Shown here: positions 6,076 through 64,000 of the stretch, in pieces | How the letters are laid out: every line of letters starts with the position of its first letter | Numbering within the stretch: the first letter of the stretch is position 1 | Origin: an uncultured Eubacteriales bacterium | GTDB lineage: Bacteria; Acidobacteriota; Aminicenantia; Aminicenantales; Aminicenantaceae | DNA: 64,000 nucleotides | Reading direction: 5' to 3' | NCBI GenBank assembly: GCA_964624145.1 | Contig: CAZUXT010000004.1 | Location: 31,189-95,188 of the forward strand | Position numbers and translations under genes: made by a program | Notes under the pieces: model-generated | Database searches by the model: none | What the model was told of the DNA's origin: nothing | What the model saw: only the letters and a program-made list of their open reading frames with translations

Positions 6076-8664
6076 ATGAAAAGCACAAAGCCCCCTTCCG
6101 CAGCTTCCTGGTTACTGTCCAGGCTGTCAGGACCATCCGTTGTTGGAGATTATGAAGAAATTTTTCAGGAGATGGCAAAGGAATATGGAAAGCGATCAGC
6201 CTGCTCCTGGTACTGGTCGCAAGTTTTGAAATCCATACCTATGTTTGCCGTAAATTTCGTTTATGGGAGTACCAGCATGATAAAAAGTTATTTTAAACTG
6301 GCTTATCGAAATATCATCAGGCAGAAAAGATATGCAATCCTTAATATCATCGGTCTGGCTGTCGGTTTGGCTGCATGCTTGCTTATGGCCAGCTATGTCA
6401 TTCATGAGCTAAGCTTTGAAACGATGCACCCGAACAAGGACCGCATTTATAGGATCAACGGGCGTATTCCCTATGGAGGCCAAGTGCTTCTCAATGCTAT
6501 CGTGGCTCCTCCATTCGGACCTGCCGTGGAAGAATCCGTACCTGAAATCGAGGAGAGCATCCGATTGCTGAACCAGCATAATTTTCCTGTGCAAATTGAA
6601 GATAGACATTATAGGGAAAATCTGATGCTTTTTGCCGAACAGGAGATCCTGGAGGTTTTTGATATCCCTCTTCTTCACGGCGATCTCAAATCAGCCCTCG
6701 AAGCACCGTTTACTGTCATTATTGACGAAACCTTAGCCCGGAAATATTTTGGCGATGAGAATCCCATCGGAAAAACTCTCCGTCTGACATTCCAGAATAC
6801 TCTTGAGTTCCATGTCACAGGAATTATGAAAAAAATGCCATCCAATACCGTCCTCAGGACACCAATGATCGCATCCTTAGCCTCACTCCTTAAAACCTAT
6901 GGGGAAGCTGCCGAGCAATGGAACAGCTGGGGTACTGTAACGACCTTTGTGAGACTCCAAAAAGGCGCTGACCCTGCTGTCGTCAATGAAAAAATAACGG
7001 AAGTGGCCCGATCCCATCTCAACGAAGATGAGAAGGATGCCTCATATTACCTGCAGCCGCTTGATAAAATCTACATTAATTACGCAGCCCGCGGTATGAA
7101 CAATGACCTGGACAACTCAGGCGATATCTCACGGCTGTATATCTTTTCCGGTGTGGCGCTTCTCATCCTGATAATCGCCGCTATCAATTTTATCAATCTA
7201 TCTACGGCAAAAATCTCCGGCAGATTGAAGGAAGTCGGCATTCGCAAGACTTGTGGAGCTTCCCGTTCTCATCTGGTCAAACAATTCCTCATGGAATCCC
7301 TTCTTCTCACCACAATTGCTATGGGATTAGGTCTCATCCTGTTTTCTTTATTTAAACCCCGACTTGACATTTATCTTGGAAAAGCTCTCAACCTGAACGT
7401 CCTGTCCACGCCATGGATTCTTCCCACTGTAGCTGCCATGGTCATCATTGTAGGCTTTTTTGCAGGTTCCTACCCGGCCCTTTTTCTATCCCGGTTCCAG
7501 GCTGCTGTTATCTTTCGATCAGGAGTTCCCCGTGGACCTTCCAAATCAGGGCTGCGAAGAATCCTGGTTGGCACTCAGTTTTTCATCGCCAGTGTCCTGA
7601 TCGTTTGCACTATAGTTGTCTTTAAACAAGTCCGCTACTCTAAAACCAAAGACCTGGGCTTTAACAAAGACAATCTCATTGTGGTCAACAACCGTGAGGC
7701 ATCCCGCCTTGAAAATGCTCCTATGGTCAAGGAACAAATTATAAGCCGAACCGGAGCCCTGGCTGTATCCTCTGTGGATAGCTTCCCTTCGTCTCAGAAT
7801 CGAAGTATCTCAACCATCCAGATCGAAGGACAAAGGGAAGAACAAGGTAAGATTGTTCAGTCTCTTGAGGTTGATGAAGATTTCATCCCCACCATGGAGC
7901 TCAATCTCATAGCCGGAAGAAATTTCGAATACGGAAGGACTGCGGATAAAGAAGCTGTCCTCATCAATGAAACGGCTGCCCGGAATATCGGACTCAAAGA
8001 TCCGGTAGGTCAATTCCTTTTTCGAAGTGACAAGGCTTACCGTATCATCGGGATAGTCGAGGATTGGAACACGAATTCGATTCATTCCCGGATCTACCCT
8101 ATCGTTCTCTTTCATGCAGATGAAACAGCGGGTGAAATCATCATCCGTCTTCCCTCAAATAAAAATCAGGTTGTTATCTCCCGGATTCGCGAGGTGTTTT
8201 CCAGCCTTTACCCCCAACAGATATTCGACTATGCTTACGTGGATGAACTCCATCTCAGAGCTTATGAAGAGGAAAGACGCCTGGCATCGCTGCTGATATC
8301 CTTCTGTCAATTGACCGTGTTTGTGGCCTGTCTCGGAATATTCGGTCTTGCGGCACACAGCACTGAACAACGAACCAAGGAGATCGGTATCAGAAAAGTT
8401 CTCGGTTCGAGCGTCGCCAGCATTGTTGTGTTGTTTACAGGCAAATATCTCCGTTGGGTGATTGCAGCCAATGTTATGGCCTGGCCAGTGGCCTATTTTA
8501 CGGCAAACAAATGGCTGCAAGCCTTTGCCTTCAGGACAGCGATAGGAGTGAGTCCGTTTGTCATGGCCGGATTGATGACTTTATTTGTTGCCCAGTTATC
8601 AGTGATCTTCCAAACACTGAAAGTCGCCCTTTCCAATCCGGTAGAGTCTCTGCGGTATGAATAA
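6076..8664 (+). CDS. FtsX-family ABC transporter permease (double FtsX/MacB-like, about 860 aa) with an N-terminal PadR-associated permease prefix domain
   Basis: An N-terminal cytoplasmic block of about 70 aa (LLSRLSGPSVVGDYEEIFQEM...WYWSQVL) precedes the first transmembrane helix. Two FtsX 4-transmembrane modules are separated by large periplasmic domains. It sits immediately downstream of padR. Confidence 0.85.
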   Translation: MKSTKPPSAASWLLSRLSGPSVVGDYEEIFQEMAKEYGKRSACSWYWSQVLKSIPMFAVNFVYGSTSMIKSYFKLAYRNIIRQKRYAILNIIGLAVGLAACLLMASYVIHELSFETMHPNKDRIYRINGRIPYGGQVLLNAIVAPPFGPAVEESVPEIEESIRLLNQHNFPVQIEDRHYRENLMLFAEQEILEVFDIPLLHGDLKSALEAPFTVIIDETLARKYFGDENPIGKTLRLTFQNTLEFHVTGIMKKMPSNTVLRTPMIASLASLLKTYGEAAEQWNSWGTVTTFVRLQKGADPAVVNEKITEVARSHLNEDEKDASYYLQPLDKIYINYAARGMNNDLDNSGDISRLYIFSGVALLILIIAAINFINLSTAKISGRLKEVGIRKTCGASRSHLVKQFLMESLLLTTIAMGLGLILFSLFKPRLDIYLGKALNLNVLSTPWILPTVAAMVIIVGFFAGSYPALFLSRFQAAVIFRSGVPRGPSKSGLRRILVGTQFFIASVLIVCTIVVFKQVRYSKTKDLGFNKDNLIVVNNREASRLENAPMVKEQIISRTGALAVSSVDSFPSSQNRSISTIQIEGQREEQGKIVQSLEVDEDFIPTMELNLIAGRNFEYGRTADKEAVLINETAARNIGLKDPVGQFLFRSDKAYRIIGIVEDWNTNSIHSRIYPIVLFHADETAGEIIIRLPSNKNQVVISRIREVFSSLYPQQIFDYAYVDELHLRAYEEERRLASLLISFCQLTVFVACLGIFGLAAHSTEQRTKEIGIRKVLGSSVASIVVLFTGKYLRWVIAANVMAWPVAYFTANKWLQAFAFRTAIGVSPFVMAGLMTLFVAQLSVIFQTLKVALSNPVESLRYE

Positions 8665-19946: not shown

Positions 19947-20114
19947 TTTAATCTTCTAAAAAATATATAACTCTTCTCATGAATCCGGCATGAATCATAA
20001 TCATACTCTAAACAGGTTGCGTAATTCAAGTCAGAAACTATCCATGCAGTGAACATATTTATCCCCCTCTTATTGACCTGCATAATGAACAAGCCAAGGT
20101 TGCGAAAACTTGAT

Positions 20115-20167
20115 GAAATTCAGGTGTGGCTGAAGCGACATTGAAGATTTAGCCACACCTGAATTTT
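20115..20167. repeat. 53-bp hairpin derivative of the 188-bp repeat family (perfect 14-bp inverted repeat aaattcaggtgtgg / ccacacctgaattt, 23-nt loop)
   Basis: This was read directly from the sequence. It shares the first 38 nt with the full repeat copies and ends with the exact reverse complement of the 5' inverted repeat. Confidence 0.7.
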
Positions 20168-20272
20168 AACTTCCCATTGACTGGATGTGATTCATAGCAT
20201 AATATCATCTACAGAAGTATTCAGAACAGTTAACCTGGATGACGAACAAGTCGAGGTTGAAGAGAGCTTAAT

Positions 20273-20460
20273 GAAATTCAGGTGTGGCTGAAGCGACATT
20301 GAAGATTTAGCCTTCGGAGTACTGTGTTTGAGGGAACTCGGCTGAGCCGAGCTGTGAGCATGTCTGACCCACGGACGGGGGGAGTTGCGCAACAGCCGAG
20401 AACACAGTACGAAGAATGGCGTTAAAAATCTTTAGCGAGCACAAGCCATATCTGAATTTC
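20273..20460 (+). repeat. 188-bp MITE-like / structured repeat, copy A
   Basis: The 5' end is gaaattcaggtgtgg and the 3' end is ccatatctgaatttc, an imperfect 15-bp terminal inverted repeat. It is about 93-95% identical to the copies at 24313-24500 and 41205-41392. Confidence 0.8.
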
Positions 20461-20629
20461 ACATCGGCTTGCCTTAATGGTAAAAAAATGGCGATTAAGA
20501 TGTAAGTAAGAACAAACAAAATATTTTGAGTTGTCATTTTTGTAGAAAACATGTATATCCTTGAAAGCAAAACAAAAAAATGACCATCGCCATTTTTTTA
20601 TGATTAGTCCAGGTTAATATCAGGAGGTT

Positions 20630-24186: not shown

Positions 24187-24312
24187 GACTTCCTCCTTAT
24201 TTCATTTATTCGTATATAGGACACACTATTTTACAGGTTTTTCTGTATGGAAACACCCTATTTTTTTCAATAGCCTGAATGATGAACATGTCGAGGTTGA
24301 AGAGAGCATACT

Positions 24313-24500
24313 GAAATTCAGGTGTGGACGTAGCGACATTGAAGATTTAGCCTTCGGAGTGCTGTGTTTGAGGGAACTCGGCAAAGCCGAGCTGTGAGCA
24401 TGTCTGACCCACGGACGGGGGGAGTTGCGCAGCAGCTGAGAACACAGTGCGAAGAATGGCGTTAAAAATCTGAAGGGAGCACAGGCCATATCTGAATTTC
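24313..24500 (+). repeat. 188-bp MITE-like / structured repeat, copy B
   Basis: It has the same terminal inverted repeats and 188-bp length as copy A. It lies between two minus-strand genes. Confidence 0.8.
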
Positions 24501-24560
24501 ACATCGGCTTGCCTATAATGAACATCGTCATTTTTTTATGAATAGGTCAGGTTAGGGATA

Positions 24561-40978: not shown

Positions 40979-41204
40979 GGAAAAAATTCAGATGTAGCTT
41001 ATGCTCCAGACTTTCATCAGGCAAGCTGGTTCTTCAGCCCGCTGATTTTTCCCAGCGAGTAAAATCAGCTTATTCCTCGGCTCGCTCTCCTCTGCGAGGA
41101 ACCATGCCCGCTCGCCTCCGGATGACTTCAGAACCACCCAGCCTGCCTGAAAGTCTGGGTGAGGCATGATGTTATTTACATTACAGGATTAACATTAACC
41201 TTAA

Positions 41205-41392
41205 GAAATTCAGGTGTGGACGTGGCGACATTGAAGATTTAGCCTTTGGAGTGCTGTGTTTGAGGGTACTCGGCAAAGCCGAGCTGCGAGCATGTCTGAC
41301 CCACGGACGGGGGGAGTTGCGCAGCAGCCGAGAACACAGTGCGAGTAATGGCGTTAAAAATCTTTAGCGAGCAAAAGCCATATCTGAATTTC
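41205..41392 (+). repeat. 188-bp MITE-like / structured repeat, copy C
   Basis: It has the same terminal inverted repeats and 188-bp length. It lies in a convergent intergenic region. Confidence 0.8.
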
Positions 41393-41457
41393 ACATCGGC
41401 TTGCCTTAATGGTAAAAAAATGCTCATCGCCATTTTTTTATGAATAGGTCAGATGGT

Positions 41458-44794: not shown

Positions 44795-44977
44795 TTGATT
44801 TCATAAAGTTTGCCACTTGAAAAACCATTTGTCAATCAAATTTAAGAACCTTCTCAGTCTTATCTTCTCTCTCCTGTCTATCCTGGATTATTCATAGGTC
44901 AGGCTATTTACTGTATGACGTCTTGTATGCTAATATGGATTTTGAATCTTAACGGAATTATTGAGCTTGAGATAGAC

Positions 44978-48227: not shown

Positions 48228-49889
48228 TTAATCATTCAAGAAAGACTTCAATTTCTGCCTTCGACGTGGCCCTCTTAACTTCCTTAGTGCCTTGGCTTCA
48301 ATCTGTCTTATTCTTTCTCGTGTGACTTTAAACTGCTGCCCGACTTCCTCAAGAGTGTGTTCATTACCACTTCCCAACCCAAAACGCATTCTGAGAACTT
48401 TTGCCTCTCTTTCCGTTATGGAATCCAGAACTTCCTCTATTTTCTCTTTTAATGTAATGTTTACAACAGTCTCAGGAGGAGAGGGGAGGATCTTGTCTTC
48501 AATAAAATCACCTAACTGGCTGTCGTTGTCCTCTCCTATGGGAGTTTCCAGAGAAATAGGCGCCTGGGAAAGCTTAATGATTTTTCTCACTTTATGGATC
48601 GGCATATCCATTCTTTTGGCCAATTCCTCACATTTTGGCTCCCTGCCCCTTTCTTGAACAAACTTTTGAGATTGTTTGATCAGTTTATTGATAGTCTCGA
48701 TCATGTGGACAGGGATTCTGATAGTCCTTGCCTGGTCACAAACAGCTCTTGTTATTGCCTGCCTGATCCACCAGGTGGCATAGGTCGAAAACTTGTATCC
48801 TCTTTTGTATTCGAATTTACTGACCGCCTTTATCAATCCGGTGTTCCCTTCTTGAATCAAATCCAAAAAATGAAGCCCTCTGTTGATATATTTCTTAGCA
48901 ATTGAAATGACTAACCTTAAATTTGCCGCAACCAACTCTTCCTTGGCCTGATCGCTCATCTTCTGTTCCATCTTAATGGTGCGCATTATCTTCTTCATTC
49001 CATCAAAATCAAGCCCCACCTCTTCCTGCATCACATGAATCAGTCTTTCTGTATCTTTTATCTGCTTTCTTATGATGAGTTTCTTTTTTCTCTTTCTTTT
49101 GCGCCTGTACTTGGCCTCCAAATCCTCCTTGATCTCTTCTAGCCTGTTAATCCCTTCCAGTTTTAACCGCAAATTCTCAGTAGCTCTCTCAATAATCTCA
49201 GGCTTGATCTGGAGAGACCTCAATAATTGATTTATTCTGGAAAGAATTCGGAGGCGTTTTATGCTTCTCTTATCAGATCCAGGTATCTGTTCAAGTTTTG
49301 AATACCCTTCCTTAATCTGAGAGATTATGTCGAAAATCCGGTCTTCTCTTGCTTCCTGAGGCTCACCTGAAGCGTTGCCTTCATCATAATCAAACATATT
49401 GTTCAGGATTCTTTTATGCAGTTCATATCTGTCTCTGACATCACAAATCAATTCAAATAAAAAAGGAGTCTCAGAAAGCGCTTTTATAATATTTCTTTCA
49501 CTTCTTTCAATCTGTCTTGCCAGAGCGACTTCACCTTCTTTTGTTAAAAGAGAAATGCTTCCCATCTCCTTTAGATAGAGTTTTACAGGGTCAGTCGTTC
49601 TTTCAATCCCCCTTATCCGTGTTTTTTCAGGTTTTTTTGGACGCTGCTTGATTTCTCTTTGTTTGTTTCTGAGTTTAATCTTATATCTATCCAAGGATTC
49701 AATAAATCCATCAAACTCTTCGTCAGTGTCAAATCCTTCCTCAAGCAAACCATTTATCTCTTCTATAAAGAGATACCCTCTTTCTCTTCCGAGCTGGAGG
49801 ATCTTCCTGATTTGCTCGTTTTTTTCAGAACTGTACTTCTTTTTCTTTTTTACCTTGGTCTGAGTGAAGAACTCCGGATTACTTGCCAT
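48228..49889 (-). CDS. rpoD: RNA polymerase sigma factor RpoD (primary sigma-70)
   Basis: Region 2 ([39 protein letters not shown]), region 3 and region 4.2 ([28 protein letters not shown]) are present, with a long N-terminal 1.1/non-conserved region. Confidence 0.95.
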
Positions 49890-50106
49890 TCAGAGACTTT
49901 CTCTCCTTTTTATGTGCATTTGAATTGTCTGGTTTCTTCCTGATAGGTCTTCTCTATCGTCTATGAAAAGAGCATTCATAGGTCTGAAAAACATATGGAG
50001 CCGTATAGGGTACTATGAACTGTATTTCTCACTGGCTATAGATTATCTCATATTCTCAGATAAGAATCAAATTTTCCACCTCTTTACAACCTCTCAGGCC
50101 TTTTAT

Positions 50107-50135
50107 TTGACACATAAAAGCATTGATGCTATAAG
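50107..50135 (+). promoter_or_regulatory. Putative sigma-70 promoter (TTGACA-N17-TATAAG) for treT
   Basis: TTGACA is at 50107-50112 and TATAAG at 50130-50135. The GGGAGAGAGAG ribosome-binding site and the ATG at 50179 follow. Confidence 0.55.
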
Positions 50136-50178
50136 TTACAAAACATCTAAACTCGAAAAAATCACACGGGAGAGAGAG

Positions 50179-51411
50179 ATGAAGAGCATCGATGACTACC
50201 TGCCTATAGTCGGTGAAAAAATAATAGGTCAAATCCATCAAAAGGCCCATAGGTTGATAAACAAACACATCGTTCACATCAACTCCACTGCCCATGGAGG
50301 AGGCGTGGCTGAAATACTGAATAACCTCATTGTCCTTCTGAATGACATAGGAGTTGATACAGGATGGAGAGTCCTGATTGGCCCCTCTGATTTCTTTACG
50401 GTCACGAAAAAATTCCACAACGCCCTCCAGGGTAATTCCATAAATCTATCAAAAAACAAAAAGTGTCTCTACTTGGAGACTAACAACAGATTCTCCAGGT
50501 TTACGCATCTGGATCATGACTGTGTTATCATTCATGATCCCCAACCCCTTCCTCTTATTAAATACAACAAGAAAAGACAGCCCTGGGTCTGGCGCTGTCA
50601 TATAGATATCACAGAGCCAAACGAGAAATTATGGGAATTTATCAAGACCTTTATTCTCAGGTATGACCTGATGGTCATATCCAGCGAACGATTTAGAAAG
50701 GATGATATCCCTATAAAACAGTATATCATTCATCCCTCCATAGATCCTCTCTCCACAAAAAATATGGACCTCAGTGAAAAAACAATCAGCACAACACTGG
50801 AAAAATTCAACATCCCCACTGATAAGCCTATAATCAGCCAGGTATCAAGGTTTGACCCATGGAAAGACCCGGAAGGAGTGCTCAAGGTCTTTGAACATGT
50901 TAAGGAAAAAATCGACTGCAGACTTATTTACTGCTACAACATGGCTCCGGATGATCCTGAGGGCGTTACTGTTTACAGCAGAATGAAAAACACAGCAAAG
51001 AAATATTTACAGTCAGGGGACGTCAAGTTTGTTCTGGGAGACAACCAGGTCCTGGTCAATGTTCTGCAGAGGATATCCGCAGTCGTACTTCAAAAATCGA
51101 TAAGAGAAGGCTTCGGCCTAACCGTAAGTGAAGCCCAATGGAAAGAAACTCCTGTCGTTGCCTCAAATAGAGGAGGCATCCCTGAACAACTAATAGATAA
51201 TGAAACCGGCTTTCTGGTAGAACCTGATGATATCAAAGGATGCGCAGAAAAAGTCATAACCATACTCAAAGATAAAAAGCTTGCCAAAGAAATGGGCAAA
51301 AAAGGAAAAAGAAACATCAAGGAAAATTTTCTGATTACCCGACACCTCAATGATTATCTCACACTTCTCATCGATGTTCTCAACCATAATCTTGGCTATC
51401 CTCTATATTAA
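50179..51411 (+). CDS. treT: Trehalose glycosyltransferring synthase TreT-like GT4 glycosyltransferase
   Basis: It is co-linear with archaeal TreT as I recall it (HINSTAHGGGVAEIL, FFTVTKKFHNALQGN, HDPQP, PWVWRCHID, SQVSRFDPWKD, REGFGLTVSEA). The start is chosen at MKSIDDY to match the TreT N-terminus. The ORF-track extension is rejected. Confidence 0.75.
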   Translation: MKSIDDYLPIVGEKIIGQIHQKAHRLINKHIVHINSTAHGGGVAEILNNLIVLLNDIGVDTGWRVLIGPSDFFTVTKKFHNALQGNSINLSKNKKCLYLETNNRFSRFTHLDHDCVIIHDPQPLPLIKYNKKRQPWVWRCHIDITEPNEKLWEFIKTFILRYDLMVISSERFRKDDIPIKQYIIHPSIDPLSTKNMDLSEKTISTTLEKFNIPTDKPIISQVSRFDPWKDPEGVLKVFEHVKEKIDCRLIYCYNMAPDDPEGVTVYSRMKNTAKKYLQSGDVKFVLGDNQVLVNVLQRISAVVLQKSIREGFGLTVSEAQWKETPVVASNRGGIPEQLIDNETGFLVEPDDIKGCAEKVITILKDKKLAKEMGKKGKRNIKENFLITRHLNDYLTLLIDVLNHNLGYPLY

Positions 51412-51499
51412 GCTGGAATCATCCACCTGACCTATCCAGGTTCAAAAGGTTTGAAATTAACTGCCTAAACGGTTAAGCTATGAATGGGTAAGCAATCTT

Positions 51500-53707
51500 A
51501 TGGGTAAAAACAAATCTTCAAATAACAAACTTATCATAATTTCCAACAGGCTTCCTGTAACCGTAAGCAGGAAAAAGAACCAGATCATAATAAAGGAAAG
51601 CCCGGGAGGACTTGCTACGGGTCTCCGCTCCCTCAAACAAAAGAAAAAAGTACTATTCATAGGCTGGCCTGGTTATATCCCAAGGAACAGCAGGGAGAAG
51701 AATTATATCCAAGAATGCCTTATCAAAAACCACCAGTGCTATCCTGTTTTCCTTTCCCGCCCTGAACTGGAAAAGTATTACTATGGATTCTCAAACAGAA
51801 CCATATGGCCTCTGTTTCACTATTTTTCTTCGTTGAGTTCTTTTGAGGAGCTGGAATGGAAATCCTACAAGAAAGTAAACCAGAAATTTTTACAGATAAT
51901 CATGCAAATGGCTGATTCTGACAACACATTCTGGGTCCATGACTATCATCTTATGCTTCTTCCTGAATTGATACGAAAAGTATTTCCAGAAAGTGCCATA
52001 GGATTTTTCCTTCATATCCCTTTTCCATCATCAGAAATATTCAGAATACTACCCTGGAGAACGGAAATTTTGGAAGGACTGTTGGGAGCTGATCTTATTG
52101 GATTCCACACATATGAATACGCAAGGCACTTCTTAAGCAGTTCATTAAGGCTTCTGGGTTATGAACACGAATTCGGTTCAATTGCCATAAACAACAGAAT
52201 GGTCCGGGTAGATAACTTTCCCATGGGAATCGATATTGAAAAAAACAACCGGCTCCTTGCTGATCCCGAAGTCCAGAAAGAAACGGAAAAGAGCAGGAAA
52301 CTCTTGGGAAAAGAGAATAAAATCATCCTTTCCGTTGATAGACTTGATTATTCCAAGGGTATCCCTCACCGTCTCAAAGCATTCGAACTCTTTCTTGCGA
52401 AAAATCGAAAATGGCATAAAAGAACGACCTATATTATGCTGTGCGTGCCGTCAAGAACAAAAGTAAGCCATTACAAACTGTTGAAAGAAGAAATCGACAG
52501 ACTTGTCGGAAATATAAACGGAAGATTCGGGACTCCGACCTGGACACCTGTCAATTATATATACCGCTCACGGCCGTTTAAAAAACTCTTCTCTCTGTAC
52601 TCAGCCGCAGACATTGCTCTGGTAACTCCTGTAAGAGATGGCATGAATCTGGTTGCCAAGGAATATGTGGCTGCAAAAAAGGATAACAACGGAGTTCTTA
52701 TCCTGAGCGGAACCGCCGGAGCCGCAGAGGAGCTGGGAGAAGCACTGATAGTCAATATCCATAATAAAAACGAAGTCGTTGATGCGATCAAAAAAGCCCT
52801 TACCATGCCGCAGCAGGAAAAAATATCCCGCATGAAGATCATGAGGAAACGCATCCTGGAATATGATATAAAATACTGGACCCGGAGTTTCATAAAAAGT
52901 ATTGAAGAGACAAAAAATATCCAGGCTACAAGAGAACACAGAAAATTAAACCAATACGGAAAAAAAGAAATTTTATCTCATTACAGAAAAAGCAGGAAAA
53001 GACTTCTCCTTTTCGATTATGACGGAACCCTGATCTCATTTTCAAAGAAACCCGAAGATGCCAAACCGGATAAAGAATTAAAAAAACTGCTCATCTCTCT
53101 ATCAAGCAACGCCAATAACCATATGGTCATAATCAGCGGAAGGGATCGAAACACAATGGAACAGTGGCTCGGGGATATCAACTGCTCCCTGGTGGCCGAA
53201 CACGGATCATGGATCAAGATACTTCCGAAAGGCGAATGGCAAAGTCAGGTCAGTATTCCTTTCCAATGGAAAGACCGGATCATGCCCATCCTAAAAAATT
53301 ACGAATCCCGGGTCCCTGGCTCTTTTGTTGAAGAAAAAGAATTCGGCCTTGCCTGGCATTACAGGAATGCCAGCCCTGAGCTTGGAAAAATCCGGTCCCA
53401 TGAACTATTTGATAATCTCAATGAATTTTTAGCAAACACAAACCTCCAGTTAATGCACGGAAAAAAGGTCATAGAGGTCAGGATCGCCGGAATCAACAAA
53501 GGGATAGCTGCGGATCATTTTCTAAGAATGAGCGATTGGGATTTCATCCTCGCACTGGGTGATGATTGGACTGACGAGGACCTTTTCAAAGCTCTGCCGG
53601 AAGGAGCTTTTTCCATAAAAATAGGGTTCGGATCCACTAAAGCCAGTTTTTATATCGAATCTCCAAAAGCCTGCCGGGCTCTTCTGCGCGAATTATCCAA
53701 ATCCTGA
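51500..53707 (+). CDS. Bifunctional trehalose-6-phosphate synthase / trehalose-6-phosphate phosphatase (OtsA-OtsB fusion)
   Basis: An N-terminal GT20 domain (LIIISNRLPVTV..., HDYHLMLLP) and a C-terminal HAD phosphatase domain (LLLFDYDGTL, GDDWTDEDLF) are present. Confidence 0.9.
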   Translation: MGKNKSSNNKLIIISNRLPVTVSRKKNQIIIKESPGGLATGLRSLKQKKKVLFIGWPGYIPRNSREKNYIQECLIKNHQCYPVFLSRPELEKYYYGFSNRTIWPLFHYFSSLSSFEELEWKSYKKVNQKFLQIIMQMADSDNTFWVHDYHLMLLPELIRKVFPESAIGFFLHIPFPSSEIFRILPWRTEILEGLLGADLIGFHTYEYARHFLSSSLRLLGYEHEFGSIAINNRMVRVDNFPMGIDIEKNNRLLADPEVQKETEKSRKLLGKENKIILSVDRLDYSKGIPHRLKAFELFLAKNRKWHKRTTYIMLCVPSRTKVSHYKLLKEEIDRLVGNINGRFGTPTWTPVNYIYRSRPFKKLFSLYSAADIALVTPVRDGMNLVAKEYVAAKKDNNGVLILSGTAGAAEELGEALIVNIHNKNEVVDAIKKALTMPQQEKISRMKIMRKRILEYDIKYWTRSFIKSIEETKNIQATREHRKLNQYGKKEILSHYRKSRKRLLLFDYDGTLISFSKKPEDAKPDKELKKLLISLSSNANNHMVIISGRDRNTMEQWLGDINCSLVAEHGSWIKILPKGEWQSQVSIPFQWKDRIMPILKNYESRVPGSFVEEKEFGLAWHYRNASPELGKIRSHELFDNLNEFLANTNLQLMHGKKVIEVRIAGINKGIAADHFLRMSDWDFILALGDDWTDEDLFKALPEGAFSIKIGFGSTKASFYIESPKACRALLRELSKS

Positions 53708-53723
53708 TTTTTATTTTTCATCT

Positions 53724-56375
53724 CTATCTGTTCCATCGGTAGGTGGCTTTAATGAGAAAAATATTATCTCCGGGGGCTGTGAAAAGGTCTCTCAGATCAC
53801 GGCCGAACAAGAGGTCTCCGGGATTGGAATAATCCGAGCGGTTCTGGGTCCAGACAAAGTAAAGAGTCGAACCCGGATGATATTCCCACCTGAAAACCAT
53901 GGTGCCCCTTAAGGATTTGAAATTAAAATCAGGGTTATAAAATGAAAATTCAGACGCGGGTCCTGCTCCGTCCGGGTCTACATGATAGTATCCGTCCTCA
54001 TATCCTATGGAAGACTCTCCCTCTCCATACCGATTGTATTCAAAAGCCTTTGGCTCGGCCAGCTCCTTAAAGTCATCATATTCTCCGACCGCAATAAAAG
54101 GCTGGAGATAGAGCTGAAGAGTGACTCTCGGGGTAAAAGTCCAGTTAAGCCTTATTTCCGTATACAGAGTGTTTTGTTTTATGCCTCCGAACACATACCT
54201 TGTCCCATATGTTTCTGTCATCAAAGGATCATCCACCCGGGTCACCCACATGATGTCAGATTCCTTGATATAAACACCGGGACCTACAGAGAGGCTTATA
54301 TTGCTGAGCGGCTTCCAGTTTAAGGAAATCCCTGAACTTAAAGAAAATCCCTCATCCGGCCTTTTATAAAAGCCGTTTTCCATAGAAAAAACCACAGCTT
54401 TTCTGCTGTCGCTTGAAACGCTAATATCAATTTCATAGCCGGAAGGCACCAGAGCCAAAGGCCCCCCTCTGGTCAGTGTTTTGCTGTACGTCTCAGGATT
54501 GTAAGCGAGCATGGTTTCAAAACCCCAGTAATTGAGAAACTCCCCCTCGAACAAAGCAAGAAAACCTTCCCATATCTTGTTCCCGCCAAAGTCATAATTT
54601 CCAAACGGACCTCCGTATACAAGCCAACTGCGGAAAACCTTGCCCGGATGGGGCTGAAAATATCCGGCTAAAAAATGAGCGTTGATGACATCCGAAGATG
54701 ATGATTGAAATCCGATATCATTGGGATCAAATCCGGGGGATAATGCCCCGAGAGCAAAAGATAACAGAAAATTTCCCCTTTGCTTGGCCAGTTGAAAACG
54801 GCCGCCCCATCCGCTCATGTGAGTGGCCTCTTTGTTTATTTCAACATGGGAAGCATCCGGTCTTTGAAAATAATGAAGAGAAGAGTTTTGAAGGCGGTAA
54901 ATCGCAGCCTGGCTGCCTTGGACACGGGTACCTCCGGCCCACGCAGAGACTACCCAGGTTCTTTTCTTGTCCAGATAGGACCAGCCGTCCACGGCCAGAG
55001 AAAAAGCATCCCTGTTCAGCAAATCGTCCAGTGTCTGGTTTTCCAGGTCCCTGTTGACTGAAGAAACCAGGAAACCGATTCCCTGGGCTCCCTCATTGAA
55101 ATCTTTCTGCACGCGGAGCGCTCCGTAATAGGTTAAAGGCTCCACTACTTCCTGATAACATGTGCCTCCGGAATCAATCTCTGCATATTCCCTGGATGTC
55201 AGCGCATTGACGAATCCAATGTCCCATCCGTTAAATATCTTTCCCGTGAGTTTAAATGCTCCCAGAATGGTAGAAGCCTCAGGATAATCCACATAACCCT
55301 CCCTTGTCACAGGTCCCTGAGGAGCTCTTCCAATACGACGGCTGTAGAAAAGTGAAGGGGCAGGCCAGTTGATATTGGCATTCACGTGAACGCCGCCCCT
55401 TCCGAAAGCATTGAAAATATTGGCTCCTTCTATAAAAAAAGGCCTTTTCTCTTCATAATAAGTCTCATACGCACTCAGATTTATGACAGCAGGGTCGACT
55501 TCTACCTGGCCGAAATCCGGATTGACCGTAGCATCCAGAGTGAGATTGCTCTTCAATCCCACTTTAAAATCAAATCCGATATCCCCCAAAAATTCCCCTC
55601 CCGTTTCAAAAGGATTCCCTTCCTGCTTGGGGCTGAAATGCGCCTGGCTTACCGCATAAGGAAGGACCTCAATATGCATGCCCGGGTCGATCCCTCTGAT
55701 TCCCCTAAGTTCCGCAAAACGGGATACATAAGCACTCTCTTCTTTAGGGATCCAGACATAAGTGAGTCTTTCATTTTTTCGCAGTATCACTCTGCGAAAA
55801 TTAACTCCCCATATATATTCATCCTTTTTGGGAAAGCGGAGCTGGTCAAAGGGGATTTTTATCTCCACACTCCATCCGTCTCCATTTAAACGAGAAGCCC
55901 AATCCCAGACGCCGTTCCATGTTGTATCACTGTCTATATCATTGTAAAGCGTCCAATCCACGATAGAACCCGAAGGATTGACAGCAAACTGGTAGCCTGT
56001 TCTTCTATCAAAGTAGGGATCCACTGCAAAAATAAACCAGTCCGAGTCCACAAAGTCATCCCTTCGGCCCAGGCGCCCTAGGATCGATTCCGGTTCTGAA
56101 TCATAAAGATAGGCAGCCACATAAAGAGATTCATCATCATAGGCAATCCAAACACGGGTCTTCTCCGAAGGTTCAGCCCCGTCAATAGGGTCTGTTTGTA
56201 CAAAATCCTTGAATCCATCAGCCTTCCACACTTCTTCTTCAAGAACTCCGTCTATTTTTATGGGTTCCCTTGCCCTACGGGCCGTAACCGGCTTGGGCTT
56301 TGGAGCCTCTACTGATTTTGCGGTCAGCAGCAAAGGCATTGAAAGAATAATAAAAATCCACAGCGCGTTCTTCAT
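53724..56375 (-). CDS. CBM9-like / DUF5916 family protein (predicted outer-membrane-associated)
   Basis: It has a signal peptide and a CBM9-like N-terminal block (IKIDGVLEEEVWKADGF...GAEPSEKTRVWIAYDDESLYVAAYLYDSEP), then an aromatic-rich beta-barrel-like body. An AGGAGGA ribosome-binding site lies 6 nt upstream of the ATG (MKNALW). Confidence 0.65.
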   Translation of the reverse strand: MKNALWIFIILSMPLLLTAKSVEAPKPKPVTARRAREPIKIDGVLEEEVWKADGFKDFVQTDPIDGAEPSEKTRVWIAYDDESLYVAAYLYDSEPESILGRLGRRDDFVDSDWFIFAVDPYFDRRTGYQFAVNPSGSIVDWTLYNDIDSDTTWNGVWDWASRLNGDGWSVEIKIPFDQLRFPKKDEYIWGVNFRRVILRKNERLTYVWIPKEESAYVSRFAELRGIRGIDPGMHIEVLPYAVSQAHFSPKQEGNPFETGGEFLGDIGFDFKVGLKSNLTLDATVNPDFGQVEVDPAVINLSAYETYYEEKRPFFIEGANIFNAFGRGGVHVNANINWPAPSLFYSRRIGRAPQGPVTREGYVDYPEASTILGAFKLTGKIFNGWDIGFVNALTSREYAEIDSGGTCYQEVVEPLTYYGALRVQKDFNEGAQGIGFLVSSVNRDLENQTLDDLLNRDAFSLAVDGWSYLDKKRTWVVSAWAGGTRVQGSQAAIYRLQNSSLHYFQRPDASHVEINKEATHMSGWGGRFQLAKQRGNFLLSFALGALSPGFDPNDIGFQSSSSDVINAHFLAGYFQPHPGKVFRSWLVYGGPFGNYDFGGNKIWEGFLALFEGEFLNYWGFETMLAYNPETYSKTLTRGGPLALVPSGYEIDISVSSDSRKAVVFSMENGFYKRPDEGFSLSSGISLNWKPLSNISLSVGPGVYIKESDIMWVTRVDDPLMTETYGTRYVFGGIKQNTLYTEIRLNWTFTPRVTLQLYLQPFIAVGEYDDFKELAEPKAFEYNRYGEGESSIGYEDGYYHVDPDGAGPASEFSFYNPDFNFKSLRGTMVFRWEYHPGSTLYFVWTQNRSDYSNPGDLLFGRDLRDLFTAPGDNIFLIKATYRWNR

Positions 56376-56527
56376 GTGTATCCTCCTGATTTTTCCGTCT
56401 CTCTTCAGCATCTTTATCCTGTTTTTCCTATTTACTATACGGAAAAAAAATACATAAAGTTGCCTCTAAATTAGAATACCGTTGGGATAGTCAAAAAGTT
56501 ATGATATATTGAACAGAGGAGATTTCA

Positions 56528-57895
56528 ATGAAACGTATGCGTAAGCCTTTATTTCTGTTGATTCTTTCATTCCTTGTGTTAACCGGTTTGTCCGGAGTGC
56601 TTTTCTCTCAGGGAAACACCACAGCTGATGTCAAAGACAGCCACAACATACTTCCCGAGAAAAAAAGGGCGGAAGTCATGAACCAATGGCTGGAATGGAG
56701 GCTCGATCATATCATTCCCACGTTGATGAGAAGAGAAAACATAGACCTCTGGCTTATCATAAACCGGGAGTACAATGAGGACCCGGTTTATATGTCTCTG
56801 GTCCCGGAACCAACCATGGCTGCCCGCAGAACATCTATCCTTATGTTTTATGACCGCGGGGAAGACAAAGGAGTTGAAAGACTGTCAGGAAGCTATTACG
56901 GAATGGGAAAATGGTACAGAACTACTTGGGAAGACAAAAAGAAAACGCAGTTCGAAAGCCTGGCTGAATTCATAAAAAAAATCAATCCGAAAAAAATCGG
57001 GATCAATGTTTCACCCACTTTCAGATTTGGGGACGGCCTGACCGCAAGCATGAAGGAAAAGCTGGAACAAGCACTGGGTCCTGAACTTTCGTCAAGATTC
57101 GTGTCCGCTGAAAACCTTTGCCTTGGCTGGCTGGAGATACGGAGTCCTCAGGAACTCAGTGTATACCGCCATATCTGCGGCATTGCCCATGATATCATAG
57201 CTGAGTTCTTTTCCAACGAAGTCATCACTCCTGATATCACCACAACGGATGATGTCGTCTGGTGGATCCGCCAAAAATATACTGATTTGGGCCTGGACAC
57301 ATGGTTTCATCCTTCCGTAAGCATTCAGAGATATGAAAAAACAGCGGAAAAATACAAAGAAAACCCGGAAGTCATCCGGAGAGGAGACCTGCTTCACTGT
57401 GATATCGGCATAAAATACCTCGGACTCTGCACGGACATGCAGTGGCAGGCTTATGTGTGTAAAACAGGCGAAGATGACGCCCCTGAAGGCATTAAAAAAG
57501 CTCTGGCACGGGCTCTCGAGGCCGCTGATATTTTCATGAACGAATTCAGAGTGGGGAGGACAGGAAATGAGATCACAGATACAGCTATGAAAAAAGCATC
57601 TGAGGCTGGACTCAGACCTCTTATTTATTCCCATCCCCTGGGATTTCACGGCCATGCAGCCGGATGTTCCATGGATGCCAGAGACCCGGAAAGCGCGCCT
57701 GAAGGAATACGCACGGAAATGGAGTACACCCTTCATTACAATACCTGCTATGCGATTGAATTCAGCAGCACAACCAGTGTCCCGGAATGGGATGGGCAGG
57801 ATGTCAGAATCGGATTTGAAGAAGACGGCGTCTTTACCAAGGACGGATGCCATTTTATAGACGGATGCCAGAAAAAAATACTTTTAATAAAATAA
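56528..57895 (+). CDS. Secreted M24-family metallopeptidase (Xaa-Pro aminopeptidase/creatinase fold)
   Basis: It has a signal peptide and a pita-bread-domain ligand pattern (DIGIKY...D, HPLGFHGH, EMEY, AIEF). A GGAG ribosome-binding site is present. Confidence 0.6.
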   Translation: MKRMRKPLFLLILSFLVLTGLSGVLFSQGNTTADVKDSHNILPEKKRAEVMNQWLEWRLDHIIPTLMRRENIDLWLIINREYNEDPVYMSLVPEPTMAARRTSILMFYDRGEDKGVERLSGSYYGMGKWYRTTWEDKKKTQFESLAEFIKKINPKKIGINVSPTFRFGDGLTASMKEKLEQALGPELSSRFVSAENLCLGWLEIRSPQELSVYRHICGIAHDIIAEFFSNEVITPDITTTDDVVWWIRQKYTDLGLDTWFHPSVSIQRYEKTAEKYKENPEVIRRGDLLHCDIGIKYLGLCTDMQWQAYVCKTGEDDAPEGIKKALARALEAADIFMNEFRVGRTGNEITDTAMKKASEAGLRPLIYSHPLGFHGHAAGCSMDARDPESAPEGIRTEMEYTLHYNTCYAIEFSSTTSVPEWDGQDVRIGFEEDGVFTKDGCHFIDGCQKKILLIK

Positions 57896-57925
57896 CCTGA
57901 ACACTCAAGGATAAAAGGAGTTAAT

Positions 57926-59173
57926 ATGGCTATATTAAGAAAATTTAAAGCTTTGAGACCCAAAAAAGGGCTGGAGGAAAAGGTTGCCTCCTATCCCTAT
58001 GATGTACTGAACAGTGAAGAAGCAAGGGAATTGGTTAAAGGAAATTCTTACTCTTTCCTGCATGTGGTCAAACCAGAGGTGGATTTATCCGAAGGCACTG
58101 ACCTGTATTCCGAGTCGGTCTATGATAAAGCGAGAGAAAATCTCGATAAGTTCATTAATGAAGGGATCCTGATCAAAGAAGACCGTCCCAAGCTGTATAT
58201 ATACAGGCAAAAAATGGGAAAAAGAGAGCAGTACGGGATCGTAGGGTGTGTATCTGCAGAAGATTATGACAAGGATGTCATAAAAAAACACGAACACACC
58301 CGGCCGGCAAAAGAAGCGGACCGGATGAAACACGTTGACCGGACAAATGCGAACGCAGGCCCTGTGTTTTTAACATATAAAGCAAAACCAAATATAGACA
58401 GGCTGGTCAAAAAAGCCATCAAAGAAAAACCTGTCTATGATTTTACCGCATCCGACGGTATAGGACATACGGTTTGGGTCATTGAAGATGATTCATTATC
58501 CGACGGGATTATCCGGGAATTCGACAAAATCGATTTCATTTATGTGGCAGACGGGCATCACCGCTCCGCATCAGGAGCAAGGGTTGCTGGGATGAGAAAA
58601 GCAGCCAATCCCCATCACAGAGGTGATGAAGAATATAATTTTTTCCTTGCTGTTTTGTTTCCGGATAACCAGCTTCACATTATGGACTACAACCGGGTGC
58701 TGAAGAATCTTAACGGACACAGTTCTGATGAATTATTTCAAAGCCTGGAAGAATATTTCACAATCAAGAAAACAAGCCCGAAACCTTTTAAACCAAAGAA
58801 AAAAGGCACATTCGGTATGTATTGGGACAAGAACTGGTACAAGCTAACGGCAAAACCCGAACACGTGGAAAAGCATGACCCTGTTGAAAGCCTGGATATT
58901 TCTTACCTGCAGAAAAATCTGCTGGAGCCCTTTTTCGGAATCAAAGATCCCCGGACCAGCGATGATATTGATTTTGTCGGAGGAATCAGAGGACTCGAAG
59001 AACTGGTAAAACTGGTGGACAGCGGTCAGTTCAAAATCGCCTTTGCCCTCTACCCCACATCGGTCAAAGAGCTCATGGACATAGCTGATTCAGGAAAAGT
59101 GATGCCTCCCAAATCTACCTGGTTCGAGCCCAAATTAAGAAGCGGCCTTCTTGTGCACATGCTTGAAGATTAG
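57926..59173 (+). CDS. DUF1015 family protein
   Basis: Family-typical blocks (FKALRP, VADGHHRSAS) are present over a length of about 415 aa. Confidence 0.8.
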   Translation: MAILRKFKALRPKKGLEEKVASYPYDVLNSEEARELVKGNSYSFLHVVKPEVDLSEGTDLYSESVYDKARENLDKFINEGILIKEDRPKLYIYRQKMGKREQYGIVGCVSAEDYDKDVIKKHEHTRPAKEADRMKHVDRTNANAGPVFLTYKAKPNIDRLVKKAIKEKPVYDFTASDGIGHTVWVIEDDSLSDGIIREFDKIDFIYVADGHHRSASGARVAGMRKAANPHHRGDEEYNFFLAVLFPDNQLHIMDYNRVLKNLNGHSSDELFQSLEEYFTIKKTSPKPFKPKKKGTFGMYWDKNWYKLTAKPEHVEKHDPVESLDISYLQKNLLEPFFGIKDPRTSDDIDFVGGIRGLEELVKLVDSGQFKIAFALYPTSVKELMDIADSGKVMPPKSTWFEPKLRSGLLVHMLED

Positions 59174-59252
59174 AGTCAATCTTTCTCATTTTGTCTTATT
59201 GCCAAATTTTTAGATACAGAAAAAATACAATGAATGATCAAAGGAAAGAAAA

Positions 59253-60140
59253 ATGACCGGACAAACATTTTATATTGTTGATGTTTTTGCAGAGACAAAA
59301 TATGCCGGTAACCAGCTGGCTGTTGTTCGAAATGCTGCGGCTCTGCCTGACGAGCAAATGCAGCAAATCGCAAAAGAGATGCACTATTCGGAAACAACAT
59401 TTATTCTGAGCGACAAACCGAGAGACAACGGATATGACGTGCGTATATTCACACCCGCAGCCGAAGTTCCTTTCGCCGGACACCCGACTCTGGGGACCGC
59501 TTTTGTTATTCACCGCGAAATTGCCAAGCAGCCGGTTCAGACAATCAATTTGAATCTGAAAGTAGGTCAAATCCCTGTCACCTTACAGAAATCCGGCCCC
59601 AAAGAGAACATCCTGTGGATGAAACAAAATGAACCGGAATTCGGCGAAATACTCCATTCAGAAACCCTGTCAGATGTACTCGGCATTGAACCAAAGCAGA
59701 TTGACGAAAGATTCCCGATTCAGGAAGTATCAACTGGATTGTACGCACTGATTGTGCCTTTGAAAACACTGGAGACGGTAAAACGGATCAGAGTCGATCT
59801 CAACAAATACTACGGACTCATCGAAAAAACCACTGCGAAATTGATCCTGGTCTTTAGTCCTGAAACGTATCACAAGGAGAATGACCTTAACGTAAGAGTG
59901 TTTGGCGATTATTATCAAGTTCCGGAGGATCCTGCAACCGGAAGTGCGAACGGCTGTCTGGCAGGGTATCTCGTCAAGCAAAGATACTTTGGAAATAAAA
60001 AAATCAACATACGCGTGGAACAGGGTTATGAAATAGGCAGGCCTTCCCTGCTGCATCTCCGGGCGGAAGAAAAAAATGAAATAAGAGAAGTCAATGTCGG
60101 CGGAAAAGTCATTATGGTCGCCAAAGGACTGCTTACTTAA
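59253..60140 (+). CDS. PhzF-family isomerase
   Basis: N-terminal FYIVDVFAETKYAGNQLAVV and the catalytic-region block YSETTF... are typical of the PhzF/YddE family. Confidence 0.85.
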   Translation: MTGQTFYIVDVFAETKYAGNQLAVVRNAAALPDEQMQQIAKEMHYSETTFILSDKPRDNGYDVRIFTPAAEVPFAGHPTLGTAFVIHREIAKQPVQTINLNLKVGQIPVTLQKSGPKENILWMKQNEPEFGEILHSETLSDVLGIEPKQIDERFPIQEVSTGLYALIVPLKTLETVKRIRVDLNKYYGLIEKTTAKLILVFSPETYHKENDLNVRVFGDYYQVPEDPATGSANGCLAGYLVKQRYFGNKKINIRVEQGYEIGRPSLLHLRAEEKNEIREVNVGGKVIMVAKGLLT

Positions 60141-60173
60141 ATCGAATAGAAAGGGGATTTCCTGTACTTTTTC

Positions 60174-60680
60174 TTATTCCGGCTGACGGATCATTTTTAA
60201 AAGCTCTTTTTCTTTTTTTATGCCTTCCAGAATCTGAGGCAGGAGAGCCTTCATATCCTCCTGTGAATAACTGCATTCCTTTATTTCTACGGTATTCTCC
60301 GTTATCAAACAGTCTATATCTTTGATGTCTTTAGCCAATCCCTGGTAGTTCTTACTGCCCTCGTCTTCGTAATAAGTGATTTGAATGGAAAATATTTGTT
60401 GGTTTTTAGAAAAATAACTGAACACTAAAATGTGTTCTTCCCTGTTTTCCCTCCGTCCGTCCAGGTCGAAATGGAACTCTCTTTTCAAAAAATCTTCCCC
60501 TTCTCTCTGGCCCATATCTTTGACTTCATCATAGATTTCCAGGATGATTTTCTCAGGATCTTTGATTTTTTCTTCGTTCTTAGCTCTGTACGTGCCACTC
60601 AAATCATCGTATCCCATAGAAAAGAATACAAAAAGGGCGGCTGTTATAAATCCGGGGCAAAAGAGAAAAGCTTTTTTCAC
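60174..60680 (-). CDS. Hypothetical secreted or membrane-anchored protein
   Basis: It has a signal peptide or anchor (FLFCPGFITAALFVFFSMG) and Glu/Lys-rich repeats. It matches no family I recognise. Confidence 0.45.
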   Translation of the reverse strand: MKKAFLFCPGFITAALFVFFSMGYDDLSGTYRAKNEEKIKDPEKIILEIYDEVKDMGQREGEDFLKREFHFDLDGRRENREEHILVFSYFSKNQQIFSIQITYYEDEGSKNYQGLAKDIKDIDCLITENTVEIKECSYSQEDMKALLPQILEGIKKEKELLKMIRQPE

Positions 60681-60742
60681 TTCCTTATCAATATCGGATT
60701 TTCCGCAGAAAAAGTCAATTTTTTCTGACTAAAAGCTCTTTT

Positions 60743-63829: not shown

Positions 63830-64000
63830 TGTGTCTTTCCCGTTTCATTAAGACTATAGTAATATACGCATAAATAGTCAATTCAGTTGCCCACCTGACC
63901 TCAATAAAAAACAGCGCCGAAACTTACCGGAAATTAATTTAGCATTTGAAAAGGTCATTAATTTGAATTAGATTAATGAGGAACACATTAAGGAGAGAAT

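Follow-up and report, generated by a model that had tools for sequence, protein, structure and literature searches.

The window, a stretch of 64,000 nucleotides from an Aminicenantes chromosome (contig CAZUXT010000004.1), carries three 188-bp blocks on its plus strand, at 20273-20460 (copy A), 24313-24500 (copy B) and 41205-41392 (copy C), each with GAAATTCAGGTGTGG as its first bases and CCATATCTGAATTTC as its last. All copies are intergenic, being located between open reading frames (ORFs), and a repeat scan of the window finds them to be its sole long repeat family. An earlier note on this DNA had described three equally long copies in one orientation, 93-95% identical and bounded by a 15-bp terminal inverted repeat, together with one mini derivative and extra common flanks, and had proposed either a non-autonomous transposon or a repeated small RNA. 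Direct comparison bears out the length, orientation, placement and first and last 15 bases of the copies; their similarity is high but slightly lower than stated, at 92-94% (A-B 175/188, A-C 173/188, B-C 176/188). Mobility and a covarying fold are both supported, but the anatomy had been misread. The 188-bp block, hereafter the rod, is the central structured module of a larger non-autonomous transposon, and this core has been kept by compensatory evolution. The features of the family in the window, with the helices of the fold labelled P0, P1 and P4, are as follows.

20234-20613, plus strand: copy A, whole mobile unit of 380 bp, bordered by TTAA at 20230-20233 and TTAA at 20614-20617; it runs from left end CCTGGATGACGAA through leader, rod, trailer and second hairpin to right end TGATTAGTCCAGG
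20273-20460, plus strand: copy A, rod; covariance-model score 215 bits
20273-20289 paired with 20444-20460, plus strand: copy A, helix P1
20290-20315 and 20411-20443, plus strand: copy A, conserved 5' and conserved 3' core strands
20337-20351 and 20352-20395, plus strand: copy A, hairpin P4 and apical arm
20247-20254 paired with 20464-20471, plus strand: copy A, helix P0, 5' arm CAAGTCGA and partner TCGGCTTG, from whole-unit folds
20481-20600, plus strand: copy A, second hairpin, arms TAAAAAAATGGCGAT (20481-20495) and ATCGCCATTTTTTTA (20586-20600) with about 90 nucleotides (nt) between them
24274-24551, plus strand: copy B, whole mobile unit of 278 bp, rod at 24313-24500, with ATAG at 24270-24273 and TTAG at 24552-24555
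41159-41452, plus strand: copy C, rod at 41205-41392, 3' end ATGAATAGGTCAG finishing at 41452
20077-20169, plus strand: mini derivative, consisting of left end CCTGCATAATGAA, leader, P1 5' arm, partial 5' core strand and P1 3' arm
44882-44903, plus strand: envelope remnant without a rod, 22 bp, CCTGGATTATTCATAGGTCAGG, with CTAT on either side
56471-56474, no strand assigned: empty target site, TTAG on the plus strand and CTAA in element orientation, occupied in JAGGYH010000132.1
63973-63976, no strand assigned: empty target site, TTAA only, occupied in JAGGYH010000132.1

A mobile unit larger than the 188-bp block

Similarity between the copies exceeds 188 bp in the repeat scan, comprising 244 nt in register and a second common block downstream, and the common 5' and 3' flanks of the copies are found because the repeat unit itself is longer than the block. 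From 5' to 3' the unit consists of a left end, a leader, the rod, a second hairpin (TAAAAAAATGGCGAT/ATCGCCATTTTTTTA) and a right end, with CCTGGATTATTCA / TGAATAGTTCAGG as its terminal inverted repeat. Measured from the 188-bp block, the true termini of copies A and B, CCTGGA...TCCAGG, are 39 bp upstream and 59-153 bp downstream. Copy A reads TTAA-CCTGGATGACGAA...TGATTAGTCCAGG-TTAA in element orientation, an architecture that recurs in the sampled loci L026, L023 and L005. The 15-bp repeat that had been taken for a transposon terminus is helix P1 of the fold. As a transposon end it is ruled out by the lack of a flanking duplication and by the sequence that follows it (ACATCGGCTTGCC...), which is identical in the three copies; P1 varies in sequence among subfamilies yet remains paired. 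The boundaries of the family are indeed conserved, but they are other ones than this repeat.

Perfect 4-bp duplications flank 10 of 54 candidate end pairs, where about 0.2 would be expected by chance. The duplicated targets seen are TTAA, TTAG, ATAA, CTAT, CTAA and CTAG, and the target of the window-type unit is TA-centred and 4 bp long. Empty sites are present as well. Window positions 49213-63901 align with contig JAGGYH010000132.1 ('Candidatus Aminicenantes bacterium AUK173') at 90-94% identity. A 383-bp rod-carrying insertion in L031, homologous to all of 20230-20612, is missing from the window at 56474/56475, and a rod element of ~237 bp (L035, ~6448-6684) occupies the counterpart of window 63973-63976. 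After divergence from this ~90%-identical relative the unit was gained or lost. The two occupied-versus-empty site pairs, together with the duplications, therefore identify a mobile element, and the transposon family has been active since species-level divergence. It is a transposable element of the miniature inverted-repeat type (MITE): small (units of 237-380 bp), apparently non-coding, and characterized by true terminal inverted repeats, a duplication of fixed length and insertion polymorphism. The window copies belong to a composite MITE with an A/T-rich second hairpin, most of which is deleted in copies B and C.

The copies differ in their state of preservation. The left flank and first element part of copy B are matched at the corresponding position by L039, whose contig stops within the element. 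Copy C has a diverged 5' envelope that abuts another repeat, its ends are decayed, and there is no clear duplication; it is therefore an old copy. The mini derivative, whose rod part spans 20116-20168, is matched by the covariance model described below at 20113-20169 (E = 2.7e-7), in agreement with the earlier note; 137 model positions are missing between two AGCC repeats, which marks it as an internal deletion. Counterparts of this mini copy, which retains the 5' core strand, are seen in L074 7614-7735 and L028 2779-2860, short derivatives of a GGTTCTCTTCC-type element that retain no more than the P1 arms plus the 3' core strand, in inverted orientation. The CCTGG-type envelope is also found nearly empty, at 22 to 146 bp. 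The micro-element at 44882-44903, which contains only the two transposon ends, represents an extreme deletion derivative, or else a footprint, of the same transposon family.

Fold and covariation of the rod

On the plus strand copy A adopts a rod-shaped fold that includes a three-way junction; its minimum free energy is -85.7 kcal/mol (z = -8.7), versus -61.9 kcal/mol (z = -5.0) on the minus strand. The rod starts with the long closing helix P1, followed by a nearly invariant internal-loop region with tandem G-A mismatches, the 5' strand of which reads AAGCGAC(C)AUUGAAGAUUUAGCCUUC and the 3' strand GAAUGGCGUUAAAAAUCUGAAG.GAGC. Above this region come a stem that covaries, a three-way junction bearing a small hairpin, and a length-variable apical arm, which occurs in a minimal form, in the form found in the window (GACCCACGGACGGGGGGAG) and in forms with 60-150 extra nucleotides. 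The CTCGGC-(TGA/AAA)-GCCGAG hairpin of the earlier note is present in the copies, and the differences that it listed between copies A and B (GTA/GTG and TAC/TGC) do turn A-U into G-U pairs, on the plus strand only. Outside the rod, the leader (GAGUCGA) pairs with the trailer (UCGGCUC) to form helix P0, which shows a compensatory change between CAAG/CUUG in the window copies and CGAG/CUCG in L031, L026 and L038.

Two samples of further copies were assembled. For the genome set, the exact 20-mer of the 5' core strand, GCGACATTGAAGATTTAGCC, was searched in a collection of species-representative genomes, which returned at least 99 stretches from about 22 metagenome-assembled genomes (MAGs); the number of copies per MAG ranges from 1 to at least 17. 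The majority of the records bear the label Aminicenantes or Acidobacteriota, and the remainder carry generic labels ('uncultured bacterium', 'uncultured Eubacteriales'). The metagenome set, retrieved with the exact 21-mer of the 3' core strand, comprises at least 119 contigs, several of which are named for marine-sediment samples. Exact-seed matches in complete genomes were found in CP070825.1 (at least 3) and CP070750.1 (at least 1), while neither a plasmid collection nor, with either core strand, viral contigs gave a match. In all, more than 200 further copies were sampled from Aminicenantes MAGs and metagenome contigs. A covariance model built from 31 short copies matches four sites in the 64-kb window and no others, namely the three copies and the mini derivative; it gives 84 further matches in the 99 genome loci (88 including the four of the window) and 79 matches in 100 of the 119 metagenome loci. 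Many copies lie at contig ends, indicating that these elements break assemblies.

Pairing is maintained across all alignments of these copies. In a MAFFT-only alignment (A2), 86% of the cells at predicted pairs are paired, compared with 41-53% when the partners are slid, and 24 pairs show double changes. The corresponding values are 89.5%, 37-51% and 44 of 68 pairs for the genome set (A3, 88 sequences), and 90.8%, 35-54% and 44 of 68 pairs for the metagenome set (A5). The latter is an independent sample, having been seeded on the opposite strand of the fold from the genome set, and its covariation score is 0.309, with controls reaching at most 0.059. All 18 pairs of P1 covary in A3, with up to five pair types each. 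The P4 hairpin and the stems of the apical arm covary too; these are local helices (helices 8-10 in A5) and not inverted repeats that pair arm to arm. One apical-arm pair takes all four Watson-Crick types (UA 53, GC 9, CG 4, AU 1, with UG 2). Substitutions thus preserve the structure over the larger alignments, as the RNA reading of the earlier note requires. Conservation is highest in unpaired or non-canonical stretches, namely GAGGGAA, GAG.AUGU, GAGUU.CGCAG and CCGAGAA together with the two core strands, and two tandem G-A mismatches are found within otherwise regular helices.

The core lies outside every Rfam family. The window has no match in Rfam 15 at gathering score, seven loci with long variants have none either, and at E values of up to 10 the copy A region gives only chance-level matches to microRNAs and small nucleolar RNAs; the element is hence not reclassified into a known RNA class. 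Several specific assignments were rejected. A hammerhead was considered for copies containing CUGAUGAG, but this sequence is only one variant of a stem that covaries, and the window copies lack it. A K-turn is contradicted by the lack of a 3-nt bulge beside a canonical stem ahead of the tandem G-A pairs. REP/BIME elements are G+C-rich palindromes of ~35 bp that are often clustered, whereas the unit described here measures 188-380 bp, has multiple helices and forms no arrays. A small-peptide gene was likewise rejected, as the frame is not conserved: read by eye, the alignments show the single ATG-led frame disrupted, through length differences of 1 nt among subfamilies and through stops in some of the long variants. 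A conserved ORF in the rod is unlikely because the apical arm varies widely in length between variants and this frame is not kept.

Envelopes, neighbours and other cargoes

Rods are not confined to the CCTGG envelope. Long rod variants occupy the centre of MITEs with other ends, including GGCTTTGTCCCAAAGTGACGGGAA with 8-bp duplications, GGTTCTCTTCCATT..GTGTGGG with 8-bp duplications, and AGGAAGCATCTCCAAAT with duplications of ~7-8 bp (read by eye, the ends being shifted by 3 nt). Perfect 8-bp duplications are found at L063 and L088 (envelope ii) and at L074, L126, L182 and L200 (envelope iii). Another rod subfamily, with GATGAAGCTGAGGGTATGGAT as its P1, has still different flanks in a by-eye reading, and the P1 sequences of the subfamilies, also by eye, appear homologous and differ by paired substitutions. 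The rod accordingly looks like a single evolving lineage, housed by at least four envelopes that represent two types of transposition. As it occurs in the centre of several envelopes, the rod, and not the transposon ends, is the conserved entity.

The envelopes suggest leads to known insertion sequence (IS) families. Those of the long variants share A/T-rich 8-bp duplications and ends beginning GG(C/T)T(C/T)T with the ISL3 family, a putative assignment for which no cognate transposase was seen. The end CCTGGATTATTCA of the window-type unit may resemble that of ISEcp1. The 4-bp duplication, often of TTAA, and termini beginning with CC are reminiscent of IS1380 and piggyBac elements, which makes these families a lead for the window envelope. 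IS1380 is a prokaryotic relative that has been used as an outgroup for piggyBac (PMC10813416). In contrast to a target restricted to TTAA, window-type targets also include TTAG, ATAA, CTAT and CTAA.

No partner gene recurs near the rods. Clustering of the ORFs within 2-2.5 kb of rods, at 99 and then 218 loci, revealed no recurrent transposase, reverse transcriptase, TnpB/IscB or recombinase; the only recurrent ORFs are common paralogues (TPR proteins, kinases, sigma-54 activators, MacB/FtsX and peptidases) and orthologous neighbours, and in sparsely sampled MAGs the neighbours are unrelated housekeeping genes. Ten further ORFs of the window include no transposase, no cognate autonomous element with the same ends is found in the window or beside rods at the 218 loci, and long end-to-end pairs of CCTGG termini enclose no transposase-sized ORF. 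Since no copy adjoins a transposase, movement must rely on an enzyme supplied in trans. A retron msr-msd was rejected as well, there being no recurrent downstream ORF family and no reverse transcriptase among the Pfam-sampled neighbours, which are housekeeping genes. Rod orientation is random: 21 rods run in the same direction as the upstream gene and 22 in the opposite one, and for the downstream gene the counts are 25 and 24. A scan for σ70-type signals found no promoter of that type and no intrinsic terminator within the elements; the promoter types of the host phylum may differ. The gap separating the mini copy from copy A contains the best σ70-like match of the region, TTGACT-17-TAATAT at window 20177-20205, which is directed at copy A and the ORF at 20630. 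If this predicted promoter is active, copy A would be transcribed within the leader of the ORF-20630 gene.

The same envelopes and genomes carry other small repeats. Module B, a cargo of ~75 nt (GCAGAUGCGAGGCRCCAGGGCAUGAAGCCGUGGUCCUUCACUGCGAAUGCCCUG..), replaces the rod in the CCTGG envelope, within the same P0 helix and together with the second hairpin, at L093 1775-2026, L041 3047-3291, L038 514-771 and L040 (3' of its rod). Module C is a second rod-like repeat family, located in the window at 41006-41158, immediately upstream of copy C. It has arms CCAGACTTTCATCAGGCAAGCTGG / CAGCCTGCCTGAAAGTCTGG and a conserved core, ..CCCAGCG..CGCTCTCCTCT-loop-GAGGAACCATGCCCGCTC, and folds at -78 kcal/mol on the minus strand versus -67 on the plus strand. 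A 15-mer of this core has ~50 approximate matches in 46 of the 218 loci, a few of which resemble chance matches in coding DNA; the matches are often nested in, or beside, 188-nt rods. The region upstream of copy C has no match in Rfam, and a 59-amino-acid ORF on the minus strand (40988-41167) that overlaps module C is probably spurious. Rods are also often hit by nested insertions of other small repeats, among them a CCTGGTTATTCACGAGTCGA-type element that enters after GCCUUCUGAU and a GGGGTCAGGCCTTATCC..GGCAAGGCCTGACCCC element within the apical arm. Such interrupted rods are seen at genome loci L012, L013, L015, L016, L030, L054, L075, L084 and others, and at metagenome loci L101, L112, L142, L105, L148 and L151. 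With nested insertions this common, rods are therefore frequent landing sites too. A gene-content difference unrelated to rods is found in the stretch shared with the AUK173 contig, where ~895 bp of the window (59260-60153) with a PhzF-like ORF (59253-60140) are replaced by ~170 bp (L035 2470-2639).

What the conserved core may be

We consider the 188-bp repeat to be the structured core of a non-autonomous MITE whose fold is selected as a single-stranded form of the plus strand, most probably as RNA acting in cis, and we assign this reading a probability of about 0.7. Two observations bear on the strand. G-U cells, wobbles that are stable on the plus strand only, outnumber their mirror image, A-C cells, in all three alignments (168/47, 326/85 and 303/60), and 60 of 65 copies fold more stably on the plus than on the minus strand; both favour a single-stranded plus-strand form. 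The evidence that this form is the selected one is good but not decisive. In the one orthologous pair available, copy C and its counterpart at the same position in L066, identity amounts to 87.7% in the core, 71-77% in the P1 arms and 52-69% in the envelope, with a paired change at one P1 position; a search for more pairs in which to compare core and flank divergence yielded none that were usable. The single-stranded form is probably RNA. RNA of the plus strand could be made by read-through or from an unrecognized promoter, and the module would then most likely act in cis on the transcripts that contain it. It may serve as a determinant of processing or stability, or as a protein-binding platform or regulatory leader inherited from parent insertion sequences, perhaps resembling bcr1, Correia or ERIC elements in this.

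Such elements offer the closest comparison. Correia-, ERIC- and RUP-type repeats can alter the processing or stability of neighbouring mRNAs. Correia/NEMIS in Neisseria, ERIC/IRU and YPAL in enterobacteria and RUP/BOX/SPRITE in pneumococcus are MITE-type repeats that form long RNA hairpins when co-transcribed (PMC3184786). Their hairpin consists essentially of the paired inverted repeats, whereas the rod is an asymmetric multi-helix core situated between the arms. The bcr1 element of the Bacillus cereus group is MITE-like and transcribed, and its double-stranded structure is kept at the RNA level by compensatory changes (PMC3184786). Like the units described here, bcr1 (~155 bp) is dispersed, intergenic and non-autonomous, has a short flanking duplication and differs in distribution between close strains. 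It is unrelated in sequence and fold, being a cruciform with two stem-loops, and it has one type of envelope with a 5-bp duplication, whereas the rod core occurs in at least four envelopes, which show two lengths of duplication. Furthermore, bcr1 is known to be transcribed, whereas transcription of the rod is putative.

Several points weigh against RNA acting in cis. Without a conserved σ70-type promoter or terminator, and with random orientation relative to genes, the reliable production of the putative plus-strand RNA would be hard to explain. Part of the G-U excess is due to inheritance from common ancestors, and alignments fitted to the model are biased towards its structure. The seed stretches of 20 and 21 nt are bound to be invariant in the sample that each retrieved; each is nevertheless conserved in the sample fetched by the other seed. 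Cognate transposases were not found near the rods, and the putative assignment to IS families, which uses the ends and duplications only, is a lead. Finally, rod-like modules B and C are present in the same genomes, so that maintained hairpins may characterize the MITEs of this lineage in general and need not signal a special function.

The G-U excess is compatible with RNA and with single-stranded DNA alike, and the fold might be needed at the DNA level, as a single-stranded hairpin used in transposition or replication without any RNA. The structure does reach the terminal inverted repeats, making the whole unit a branched hairpin, its orientation relative to transcription is random, and G-T wobbles and tandem G-A mismatches are tolerated in DNA hairpins too. 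We nevertheless regard this explanation as rather unlikely. Elements with inverted repeats and a fixed-length duplication normally move as double-stranded DNA, through the action of DDE enzymes, a common DNA requirement is unlikely for a core found in envelopes with different ends and duplications (4 versus 7-8 bp), and rod-less envelopes, which also have target-site duplications, have apparently transposed.

Alternatively, the rods could be multi-copy, free-standing small-RNA genes that act in trans, with the transposon ends incidental. This would agree with internal loops conserved far above the ends, with the few exact-seed matches listed for the two complete genomes (at least 3 and at least 1) and with the conserved, covarying secondary structure, and the strand asymmetry of the wobble pairs likewise favours RNA. 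Each well-preserved copy, however, lies inside a unit with inverted repeats and a duplication, gain and loss involve whole transposon units, deletion minis and nested insertions are common, and the elements contain no conserved σ70 promoter or terminator, all of which render such genes unlikely.

A functionless palindromic MITE interior, in which pairing stems from the origin of the elements or from gene conversion between arms, is very unlikely. MITEs are often long palindromes and other rod-like repeats occur in the same genomes, but the covariation resides in local hairpins and asymmetric junctions without arm-to-arm repeats, the unpaired loops are the most conserved part, strand-biased wobble pairs would be unexpected from arm conversion, and the core outlasts the envelope at the orthologous site of copy C. 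Least credible is the idea that the rods are orphan copies of a guide or bridge RNA serving an RNA-guided recombinase or nuclease (IS110, IS200/IS605 or IscB). The bridge RNAs of IS110 and the omega RNAs of IS200/IS605 are likewise structured RNAs of ~150-250 nt encoded in mobile DNA, compared with about 165-330 nt for the rods, and orphan guide-RNA copies are known in some genomes, but those RNAs adjoin their own protein gene and have guide loops or segments that vary, whereas the rods are orphans (0 of 218 loci with an adjacent recombinase, TnpB or IscB-like ORF family) with invariant, non-programmable internal loops and no variable guide segment adjoining the scaffold, lie within inverted-repeat elements that make target duplications, and match no Rfam model, including any IS605- or HEARO-type model in the release.

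A structured MITE core acting in cis as RNA leaves room for a further, tentative proposal, which we hold at well below even odds: the core may constitute an undescribed kind of functional RNA module that is itself the real unit of selection and spreads among the Aminicenantes via the centres of several unrelated MITEs of the 4-bp and 8-bp types. Candidate roles for such a module are a protein-binding scaffold, a self-processing RNA, and a regulator of transposition or of host transcripts.

MITEs with an RNA fold kept by compensatory change are already known, and few have been studied. A literature search found no published link between Aminicenantes and structured RNAs or MITEs. What is new here is that conservation falls on an asymmetric core of several helices with invariant loops and not on an inverted repeat; more than 200 copies of this core were sampled, all from a lineage that is uncultured, and it has no entry in Rfam. 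The presence of this core in envelopes with different ends and duplication lengths suggests that the module itself is selected and exchanged. If the core does act as RNA, it would add to the short list of transposon-borne RNAs and provide a convenient marker for Aminicenantes genomes; if it is an RNA module of an undescribed kind, it would be a 'cargo RNA' of MITEs and not a by-product of their inverted repeats.

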